Below, piece after piece: positions 2,634 to 4,876 of a stretch of 10,026 nt of DNA. Under the pieces are notes generated by a model, which saw only the letters and a program-made list of their open reading frames with translations, was not told where the DNA came from and did not search any database. Origin of the DNA: a virus (lineage: Duplodnaviria; Heunggongvirae; Uroviricota; Caudoviricetes); IMG/VR virus record IMGVR_UViG_2778261454_000013; one strand, written 5' to 3'. Made by a program: the position numbers and the translations under genes. The first letter of the stretch is position 1, and every line of letters starts with the position of its first letter.

Positions 2634-3125
2634 AACCCCACCTCGCAGACAAAGCGGGTGTAAATTGAGGGAATACAACGTATCGCAAAAAAGCAGAAAC
2701 GTAACAGACTCGGAGTCAGTGAATAACTCAGGTATTGAGTTATCAGCTAATATCGAGACTCAAAAAATGGAAAAACCAGCTCGACGGCGGGTTTAAGCTG
2801 TGTGACGAAGTAACCACTCTTAACAGCATAACCAATTTTTTACGTACGTAAACCACTGAATGATATTTATGAGAATGCTACCGAGTGTTCAAAACACCAC
2901 CACAAATACATAAGAAAACCTCAACAAATAACCAATAAATAATTTCAGAGGTTATTTTTAGTTGATTTAAATTAAACTGCCGAATTATAGAACCCCCATA
3001 AATAACAGCCATTAATATAAATTAGCTAATAGGTTTATTTTTGTTCAAATAAGAGCCATAAATAGGTTTCGATAGAAAAAGTTCAGATAAAAATAGAGAT
3101 CTACTTCACAAATTAAATGAGAAAC

Positions 3126-3150
3126 TAAAACTTACATCTTGAAATAATCA
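3126..3150 (+). promoter_or_regulatory. OmpR-box-like motif in the porin upstream region
   Basis: Sequence AAACTTACATCTTGAAATAATCAC resembles the ompC OmpR-binding half-sites (TTTACATTTTGAAACATCTA) as I recall them. Lies about 80 bp upstream of the porin ATG inside an AT-rich ~540 bp ORF-free region. Confidence 0.3.
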
Positions 3151-3221
3151 CATTGATTAGATGAATATTTATCGCGCAGTGACATCATTTTTTAATAATA
3201 GTTCAAAAAAAAGGGCTCACG

Positions 3222-4304
3222 ATGAAAAAATTAACAGTGGCAATTTCTGCTGTAGCTGCATCAGTACTGATGGCGATGTCTGCTCAGGCAGCTGAAATTT
3301 ATAATAAAGACAGTAACAAGCTGGATCTGTACGGGAAAGTTAATGCTAAGCACTACTTCTCCTCTAATGATGCAGATGATGGTGATACTACTTATGCCCG
3401 TCTTGGCTTCAAAGGTGAAACCCAAATCAACGATCAACTGACTGGTTTCGGTCAGTGGGAATATGAATTCAAAGGCAACCGCGCTGAATCTCAAGGTTCC
3501 TCCAAAGACAAAACCCGTCTTGCATTTGCAGGCCTGAAATTCGGTGACTACGGCTCAATCGATTACGGCCGTAACTACGGTGTAGCATACGACATCGGTG
3601 CGTGGACTGACGTTCTGCCAGAATTCGGTGGCGATACCTGGACCCAAACAGATGTATTCATGACTGGTCGCACCACAGGTGTTGCAACTTATCGTAACAA
3701 CGACTTCTTTGGTCTGGTTGATGGCCTGAACTTTGCAGCTCAGTATCAGGGCAAAAATGACCGAAATGAAGTAACTGAAGCTAATGGCGATGGTTTCGGT
3801 TTCTCAACTACTTATGAGTATGAAGGATTCGGCGTGGGTGCAACCTATGCTAAATCTGATCGCACTAATAATCAGGTTATCTACGGTAACAACGGTCTGA
3901 ATGCTTCTGGTCAAAATGCTGAAGTATGGGCAGCTGGTCTGAAATATGATGCGAACAACATCTATCTGGCCACCACCTATTCTGAAACCCAGAACATGAC
4001 TGTTTTTGGTAATAACCATATTGCCAACAAAGCACAAAACTTCGAAGCTGTTGCACAATATCAGTTCGACTTCGGCCTGCGTCCATCCGTTGCTTACCTG
4101 CATTCTAAAGGAAAAGACTTGGGTGTTTGGGGTGATCAGGACCTGGTTGAATATGTTGATGTAGGTGCAACCTATTACTTCAACAAAAATATGTCCACTT
4201 TTGTTGACTACAAAATCAACCTGATTGATAAGAGCGATTTCACGAAAGCATCTGGCGTTGCTACCGATGATATCGTTGCTGTAGGTATGGTTTACCAGTT
4301 CTAA
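3222..4304 (+). CDS. nmpC: Phage-encoded general porin of the OmpC/OmpF family (NmpC/Lc-type), intact, 360 aa
   Basis: Signal peptide [23 protein letters not shown], mature N-terminus [22 protein letters not shown] loop-3 motif, C-terminal aromatic ...VGMVYQF. Full length with no interruption. Sits between Q and the holin on the opposite strand, as nmpC does in DLP12. Confidence 0.9.
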
Positions 4305-4470
4305 TTTGATTACTAAAAGATATGTTGCGGGAGGCTTTGCCTCCCCAACATATAAGTGGCTCCCTCAAGCCACTTCCTTTAGGAGCACAACCTTGCTTCT
4401 AACTATATAAACCTTCTGTTATATATTACCCTTTATTTTTGGGGGCGTCTCAACGCCCCATTTTTAATAA
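4305..4470 (+). ncRNA. ipeX: Structured porin 3' UTR, IpeX-like candidate regulatory RNA
   Basis: About 166 nt between the porin stop and a terminator. Three perfect hairpins: GGGAGGC-TTT-GCCTCCC (4329..4345), AAGTGGCT-CCCTCA-AGCCACTT (4354..4375), GGGGCGT-CTCA-ACGCCCC (4442..4459). IpeX is described as lying in the nmpC/lc 3' UTR before its terminator. Confidence 0.4.
4442..4470 (+). terminator. Rho-independent terminator ending the porin transcript
   Basis: 7-bp GC-rich stem, 4-nt loop, followed by TTTTTAATAATTTTT. About 25 bp before the convergent Q stop codon. Confidence 0.55.
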
Positions 4471-4492
4471 TTTTTAGTAAACAATTGGCATA

Positions 4493-4876
4493 TTAATTAG
4501 AGTTATTAACAACGATATCCATCTCTAACCGGATATCTAATGCCATTAACATCCCTTCAATTATACCCTCAGCCTTCTGTAACCTTTTCCCGATATAACC
4601 ATCAGAGCAGCAATGCTTACCTGCCAGTGACATGAATGTCATACCGACTACATAATAATCTACTAATAAATCGTGCAAATCGCTGTTGTTCTTTTTCAGA
4701 CGGGCCATGCACCCGCAAATGATCATCGCGTCATCGTCACAACATTGCGGGCGAGATTTTACTTTTGAAGGAATTAATCCCTTAAAACCGGCGGCAATGG
4801 ACGACCAGGTCACATCTTCATGATTATTAGCCGCCCACGCTCCCCAACGCTCAAGAACCATCTGAATATCACGCAT
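4493..4876 (-). CDS. quuD: Late-gene antitermination protein Q (QuuD-like), 127 aa
   Basis: Cys-rich zinc-binding motif ([19 protein letters not shown] ... GKHCCSDGY). ATG at 4876 preceded by GGAG. The ORF-track start at 4891 is a TTG five codons upstream. Transcribed in the same direction as the lysis cassette. Confidence 0.75.

Follow-up and report, generated by a model that had tools for sequence, protein, structure and literature searches.

IpeX, a regulatory RNA reportedly first described by Castillo-Keller, Vuong & Misra in 2006 (J Bacteriol 188:576), is encoded at the 3' end of prophage porin genes and acts on the porins of the host. The abstract of the 2006 study is said to state that IpeX and ompC lack complementarity, or that the RNA does not act by base pairing. 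It is also said to report an effect that is Hfq-independent on ompC and Hfq-dependent on ompF, and to have found OmpA unaffected. In DLP12 and phage PA-2, IpeX is a 167-nt RNA processed from the porin transcript (PMC12197685). It was discovered as a multicopy suppressor (PMC3617542, PMC5069750) and lowers both OmpC and OmpF (PMC12197685, PMC3617542, PMC5069750), a reduction that is also brought about by ipeX alone in multicopy, in the absence of the porin (PMC3617542, PMC12197685). Its action has been described as one that "does not involve base-pairing" (PMC3617542), it has been stated that between ipeX and its targets "no complementary sequences exist" (PMC10690425), and a further account likewise speaks against complementarity or base pairing by this RNA (PMC12197685). 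The literature, in short, treats the mode of action of IpeX as non-antisense and unexplained. Other RNAs invite comparison. The host represses the same two porins with MicC (RF00121), a chromosomal and Hfq-dependent repressor of ompC, and MicF (RF00033), a repressor of ompF. The sRNAs CpxQ, SdhX and NarS are, like IpeX, products of mRNA 3' ends and share the terminator of the mRNA concerned, and DicF-like prophage sRNAs resemble IpeX in being horizontally acquired RNAs that act on core-genome genes (PMC5069750).

The window analysed here, a stretch of 10,026 nucleotides of DNA from a virus of the Caudoviricetes (IMG/VR record IMGVR_UViG_2778261454_000013), carries such an element on its plus strand. 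The preliminary description of region 4305-4470 had proposed an IpeX-type element, at the very site to which ipeX had been mapped, and both the proposal and the placement are borne out by pairwise alignment. Over about 190 nt, the window differs at 5 positions from the 3' regions of K-12 DLP12 nmpC and phage PA-2 lc (J02580), the homology by which ipeX is defined, and blastn puts the identity of the window element to the K-12 and PA-2 copies at 97.6%. The region is 100% identical to the corresponding part of a DLP12-like prophage found in E. coli E24377A and many other strains, and to phage ev099. The element follows immediately after the stop codon of an NmpC/Lc-type porin gene that is read in the same direction, has an intrinsic terminator at its end, and converges with the Q gene; the sequence, the position after nmpC or lc, the terminator and the convergent quuD are all shared with IpeX of K-12 DLP12 (qsr') and PA-2. 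The predicted RNA starts at the porin stop codon and runs to where the terminator U-tract ends (4305-4465, plus strand), a length of 161-166 nt as compared with 167 nt for K-12 IpeX, whose annotation corresponds approximately to 4305-4470 of the window. The changes relative to the known IpeX sequences affect positions just past the stop codon, the hairpin 1 loop, and hairpin 3, where a pair that is A-U in K-12 is G.U in the window. Judged by this homology, region 4305-4470 is almost certainly ipeX itself and not merely a sequence reminiscent of it. As an element, ipeX is already known and is thus a rediscovery here.

The preliminary description had called this region highly structured, and the folding of 4305-4470 agrees: the minimum free energy is -63.2 kcal/mol, compared with -30.7 +/- 3.4 kcal/mol in 200 dinucleotide shuffles (z = -9.6), not one of which was as good. 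Three perfect hairpins with stems of 7, 8 and 7 bp had been listed; an inverted-repeat search recovers these, but the list undercounted the extent of the structure, as hairpin 1 reaches 15 bp and there is an additional hairpin of 9 bp. Hairpin 1 (4320-4353), detected by folding and as an inverted repeat, contains a bulged C4328 and a UUU loop, and includes the perfect 7-bp repeat GGGAGGC/GCCTCCC (4329-4335 with 4339-4345). Hairpin 2 (4354-4375) has a perfect 8-bp stem, AAGTGGCT/AGCCACTT (4354-4361 with 4368-4375), and a 6-nt loop. Hairpin 3 (4379-4402), the additional hairpin detected by folding, comprises 9 bp, one of which is the G.U pair. Hairpin 4 (4404-4425) is weak, consisting of 7 bp made up exclusively of A and U (TATATAA/TTATATA, 4404-4410 with 4419-4425), and partly covers the proposed seed discussed below. 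The intrinsic terminator (4442-4465), which functions as such on the plus strand only, has a 7-bp G+C stem (GGGGCGT/ACGCCCC, 4442-4448 with 4453-4459), a 4-nt loop and a tail of A plus UUUUU (4460-4465), and is also recognised by a terminator scan. The ~166 nt said to separate it from the porin stop codon includes the terminator itself, and the distance to its stem is ~137 nt. The layout of IpeX is therefore one of three stable 5' hairpins (4320-4402), an A/U-rich and little-structured stretch of ~40 nt (4403-4441), and the terminator (4442-4465). The sequence UUUAUUUUU lies upstream of the terminator and its five U residues.

The porin gene that precedes the element (3222-4304, plus strand, TAA at 4302-4304) is intact, as the preliminary description had maintained. 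It encodes an NmpC/Lc-type prophage porin of 360 aa with a full-length match to Pfam Porin_1 (E = 3.6e-152) that is 90% identical to PA-2 Lc, from which it departs in surface-loop regions, the differences being grouped in two stretches. In K-12 DLP12, by contrast, nmpC is split by IS5, and it is PA-2 that the window resembles in this respect. The upstream region (2679-3221, plus strand), which contains the putative promoter and is common to PA-2 lc and K-12 nmpC, aligns closely with the region upstream of PA-2 lc, in which CRP sites have been annotated. Given an intact porin and a PA-2-like upstream region, the argument that ipeX of the window would be transcribed appears reasonable. On the other side, the element faces the convergent Q antiterminator gene quuD (4493-4876, minus strand; named after RefSeq at the identical E24377A locus, and matching Pfam Phage_antitermQ), which bounds the porin-ipeX moron on its 3' side. 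The gene order is of the DLP12/PA-2 type, with Q convergent with the porin and a P21-type holin, lysozyme and Rz on the other side, and the host element is a DLP12/PA-2-like lambdoid prophage of E. coli. The late promoter pR', the target of Q, could not be located on the minus strand in 2634-3221 or 4466-4492 of the window. As the ipeX terminator is confined to the plus strand, minus-strand transcripts running out of Q would cross ipeX and the porin gene in antisense before reaching the holin (2633). In phage Lambda_2E9 (L173 2525-3583), which has a Q gene that is 88% identical, a convergent gene for the lipocalin Blc sits directly downstream of Q, and the slot just downstream of Q looks like a hot spot for moron insertion.

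The A/U-rich stretch of IpeX is complementary to the translation start region of ompC. Pairing was scanned with windowed duplexes corrected for the energy needed to open them (accessibility); whole-molecule RNAduplex was discarded, since the duplexes it returned were extremely long and made no sense, those of the MicF control included. The proposed seed 1, AACCUUCUGUUAUAU (4410-4424, plus strand), pairs in an unbroken run of 15 bp, one G.U and 14 Watson-Crick, with positions -21..-7 of ompC, the target in K-12 being AUAUAACAGAGGGUU, and thereby covers the Shine-Dalgarno (SD) sequence GAGGG. A proposed extension, CCUUUAUUU (4430-4438, plus strand), forms another 9 bp with ompC -31..-23 (AAAUAAAGG), and is separated from seed 1 by a 5x1 internal loop, so that the predicted duplex comprises 15+9 bp over ompC -31..-7. 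Its energy is -26.4 kcal/mol raw and -17.6 kcal/mol net, whereas the same procedure yields -26.5 raw and -15.9 net for MicC and ompC. As good a result was found in 0/2000 shuffled seeds, 0/2000 shuffled targets and 0/611 background start regions, these background sets being small (611 start regions and 0.93 Mb) and distinct from a whole-genome ranking of targets. In 466 kb of enterobacterial DNA, searched on both strands, the only runs of at least 14 bp complementary to ipeX are 14 copies of the start-region site of OmpC orthologues, and leaders carrying a complementary site come from several genera. No other match to the seed of at least 11 nt occurs anywhere in the window. What is characteristic of antisense sRNAs, an accessible seed complementary to the SD/AUG region of a target beyond chance expectation, is thus present in IpeX.

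Similar, if weaker, complementarity extends to the second porin. The proposed seed 2 (4413-4433, plus strand), which overlaps seed 1, pairs with ompF -14..+9, a segment that includes the SD and the AUG, through 10+5+4 bp. Its net energy is -11.5 kcal/mol, compared with -18.2 kcal/mol for MicF and ompF, and it is equalled in 47/2000 shuffled seeds, 40/2000 shuffled targets and 4/611 start regions (p ~0.02), a significance that is modest. Pairing with ompA is at background (466/2000 shuffled seeds, 707/2000 shuffled targets and 263/611 start regions; p 0.23-0.35), and the start region of the phage porin itself is unremarkable, 50 of the 611 background start regions being as good. The predicted energies consequently follow the reported order of regulation, with ompC ahead of ompF and none for ompA. 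The complementarity to the ompC and ompF start regions goes beyond the published accounts, which deny that any exists, and makes the mechanism of IpeX testable. It may also bear on where the seed came from: the reverse complement of IpeX 4395-4438 aligns with K-12 ompC -31..+14, which is beyond the paired core, and this alignment suggests an inverted copy of an ompC-type porin leader as a possible source of the seed.

Comparison with the host RNAs gives the proposed seed a familiar appearance. The 5' end of MicC reads GUUAUAU[G]CCUUUAUU, whereas IpeX has GUUAUAU[AUUAC]CCUUUAUU in 4418-4424 together with 4430-4438, and both RNAs show complementarity to the ompC segment around -31..-15, at comparable predicted energies. 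There is no homology between them outside of the seed. MicC has a gene of its own and carries its seed at the 5' end, while the seed of IpeX is internal, 3'-proximal, directed over the SD, and contained in the 3' UTR of an mRNA. Likewise, MicF, by way of UUAUUUAUUACC, and IpeX, by way of UUAUAUAUUACC, both pair with the SD region of ompF, GGUAAUAAAUAA, but the MicF duplex is longer and stronger, the two RNAs have no further similarity, and their genomic contexts differ. The proposed seed of IpeX has the position that is found in sRNAs of the CpxQ, SdhX and NarS type, upstream of a terminator hairpin with its U tail. IpeX is set apart from these RNAs and from DicF by its three extra stable 5' hairpins and by its reported Hfq independence for ompC, and its pairing, processing and Hfq binding are putative. 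A 13-nt sequence identical to IpeX 4424-4436, TATTACCCTTTAT, is present on the opposite strand ~700 nt upstream of OmpC-orthologue genes in six Enterobacteriaceae genomes (loci L048, L052, L066, L080, L087 and L090, at about 1783-1826). A connection of these matches to MicF was dropped, as the sequences surrounding them are unlike MicF.

How the element varies is informative about what is constrained. A total of 28 distinct variants were gathered and realigned with the window copy, yielding an alignment (A4) of 24 distinct rows. Across these 24 distinct variants, 96.7% of the cells in the proposed hairpins are paired. The variable positions are those of loops, the bulge, the ends of stems and the 5' arm of hairpin 4; in the terminator it is mostly the loop that varies. 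The bulge of hairpin 1 is shifted in the S22EC/PhiR63_2 variant, and the top two pairs of hairpin 2 are missing in some variants. The sole compensatory pair is found in E. albertii, where the top pair of hairpin 1 is U-A instead of C-G; with one such pair and too little divergence, covariation was rejected as support for the hairpins, and the structure therefore rests on thermodynamics and on the location of the variation. Hairpin 4 behaves differently from the sequence that it partly covers. One of its pairs is broken and uncompensated in 11 of the 24 distinct variants. The commonest IMG/VR variant and E. albertii are among these 11, and in these two cases the hairpin does not form. The rest of hairpin 4, its loop and 3' arm, and the nucleotides that follow (AACCTTCTGTTATATATTACC...), on the other hand, are almost invariant, E. 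albertii included, and the cost of opening the seed stretch is 1.0-3.5 kcal/mol in every variant tested. An arm that mutates without compensation next to a seed that hardly changes indicates that the constraint is on the sequence and not on hairpin 4. The target is similarly static: 5359 of 5426 E. coli genomes have an ompC leader of at least 99% identity, and, as seed and target are both nearly invariant, natural covariation cannot serve as a test of the antisense model.

Taken as a whole, these properties suggest that antisense action on ompC, and less efficiently on ompF, is probably the mechanism behind repression by IpeX, an assessment drawn from complementarity and conservation. We further lean towards the notion that IpeX is an ordinary antisense sRNA, a phage-borne mimic of MicC and in part of MicF, whose seed (4410-4438) occludes the ribosome-binding sites of ompC and ompF. 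In such a scheme, the porin promoter would drive transcription of ipeX, which would form the tail of the porin mRNA and be active either as this 3' tail or as a processed RNA. The A/U-rich stretch 4403-4441 would provide the antisense seed, of which 4410-4424 and 4430-4438 would pair with ompC -31..-7, over the SD and overlapping the MicC site, and 4413-4433 would pair less perfectly with the SD and AUG of ompF. Both pairings are predicted to block translation initiation, and the lysogen would as a result exchange host OmpC and OmpF for the phage porin. The three 5' hairpins may act as stabilisers or as barriers to processing, and the terminator with its U tail may be the 3' module customary in sRNAs of the Hfq type. 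It is proposed that the length of the ompC duplex accounts for the Hfq independence of the effect on ompC, and the imperfection of the ompF duplex for the Hfq dependence of the effect on ompF.

A different possibility, less probable but the foremost rival, is that IpeX acts indirectly, as has been published, and that this structured RNA titrates or recruits some protein (for example Hfq, ProQ or a ribonuclease), or else interferes with the translation or stability of porin mRNAs, the pairing being incidental. That the effect on ompC is said to be Hfq-independent would fit with such a role, as would the three very stable hairpins and the terminator, which resemble the 3' ends that proteins of the ProQ/FinO type generally bind. 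It also agrees with the reviews that deny base pairing (PMC3617542, PMC10690425, PMC12197685), and no ipeX entries occur in the supplements of the EPEC RIL-seq and CLASH interactomes. Several of the observations above are nevertheless hard to reconcile with incidental pairing. The 15+9 bp match to ompC is as strong as the validated MicC-ompC interaction and was not reached in 4000 shuffles or 611 start regions, the constraint falls on the seed sequence instead of on the hairpin that covers it, and a specificity in which ompC exceeds ompF and ompA is left unpaired tracks the predicted energies. The denial of complementarity may itself have a simple cause, as the longest exact Watson-Crick run between IpeX and ompC is 10 nt, which is below the default blastn word size of 11, and a similarity search in 2006 could thus have missed the match.

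It is unlikely that the element functions in cis only, that is, as stabilising 3' hairpins and a terminator for a lysogenic-conversion moron, with the fall in OmpC resulting from competition for export or assembly or from envelope stress. The reduction of OmpC and OmpF reported for multicopy ipeX without the porin (PMC3617542, PMC12197685), which for OmpC concerns the K-12 copy, contradicts this explanation, which would also leave unaccounted for an almost invariant, little-structured stretch with complementarity to the start regions of two host porins. Its appeal lies in the arrangement of the locus, a promoter, gene and terminator inserted convergently just downstream of Q as is typical of morons, with Blc convergent in the same slot of a related phage, and in the protection that 3' hairpins often afford to mRNAs. 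Very improbable, finally, is a function of the minus strand, such as late-promoter, qut or tR' signals after Q, or of a small ORF. Q does end 22 nt from the region of the terminator U-tract, the late promoter of lambda-type phages directly follows Q, hairpin 1 in antisense is followed by CUUUU, and three records annotate ORFs over ipeX, but on the minus strand of 4305-4492 a scan turned up nothing resembling a promoter or a terminator, a candidate -35 would fall in the terminator loop, which is variable between variants, and the ORFs are short (35, 34 and 26 aa), that of PA-2 being cut after 12 codons in the window. The annotated ORFs (window 4261-4410) are "ORF1" of PA-2 (L002 2428-2637), a "hypothetical protein" of phage 434 (L003 3182-4590) and CDS0012 of Chlobot (L008 2502-2606). 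They are probably not genes, as the frame of PA-2 ORF1 is cut by a 1-nt indel near 4314 that separates the variants.

If antisense action by IpeX is correct, a single prophage stretch of ~30 nt would hold the functional equivalents of the seeds of host MicC and MicF, and the prophage would use these MicC/MicF-like seeds to exchange the porins of its host for its own. OmpC is the receptor of PA-2, and under the same assumption this porin swap would be a form of superinfection exclusion. An antisense mode of action would also overturn twenty years in which IpeX has been cited as regulating porins independently of base pairing. OmpC and OmpF are relevant to antibiotic entry and as phage receptors, and it is a regulator of these two major porins that annotation pipelines miss. 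The window in its entirety has no match in Rfam 15 at gathering thresholds, and no Rfam IpeX family was matched despite the 97.6% identity to K-12 ipeX. Six Rfam matches at E <= 10 in 4200-4560 are attributed to chance, having 10-18 bits compared with gathering thresholds of 34.5-80, and MicC (RF00121) and MicF (RF00033) are not among them. None of the complete E. coli genomes that carry ipeX has an annotated feature under it, which, together with the lack of an Rfam match, indicates that the pipelines overlook IpeX.

The element is nonetheless common. Of 5426 complete E. coli genomes, 2509 (nearly half) contain it, nearly all at an identity of at least 90%, as do 36 phage records, the matches in genomes and phages being put at 97.6-100% identity. 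It is likewise present in all 80 of the 80 IMG/VR contigs that encode the window-type porin. Since E. coli genomes have a median of one copy, a reading as a dispersed, REP-like repeat was dropped. Among 80 loci with relatives of the porin, taken from one genome per species, only those of E. coli and E. albertii have ipeX, the latter being the most divergent case at 87.7% identity overall; at the 78 others (Citrobacter, Salmonella, Enterobacter, Klebsiella, Serratia and others) there is no ipeX-like sequence 3' of the porin relative. The chromosomal OmpD-like porins of Citrobacter, Salmonella and Enterobacter thus lack the element, and within these 80 genome loci ipeX is found solely beside the Escherichia prophage porin. 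RefSeq (PGAP) labels the window-type prophage porin "ompC: porin OmpC" (loci L004, L005 and L006). By this naming, the genomes appear to hold two ompC genes, even though the 3' UTR of the prophage porin reportedly represses the real one. In E. coli NGF1 and Nissle-type strains (L005 1416-2664), the porin and ipeX adjoin yedK, in the absence of Q or lysis genes, and at the NGF1 locus ybcM, ybcL and emrE come after them. The NGF1-type locus is a prophage remnant that has retained the porin-ipeX module.
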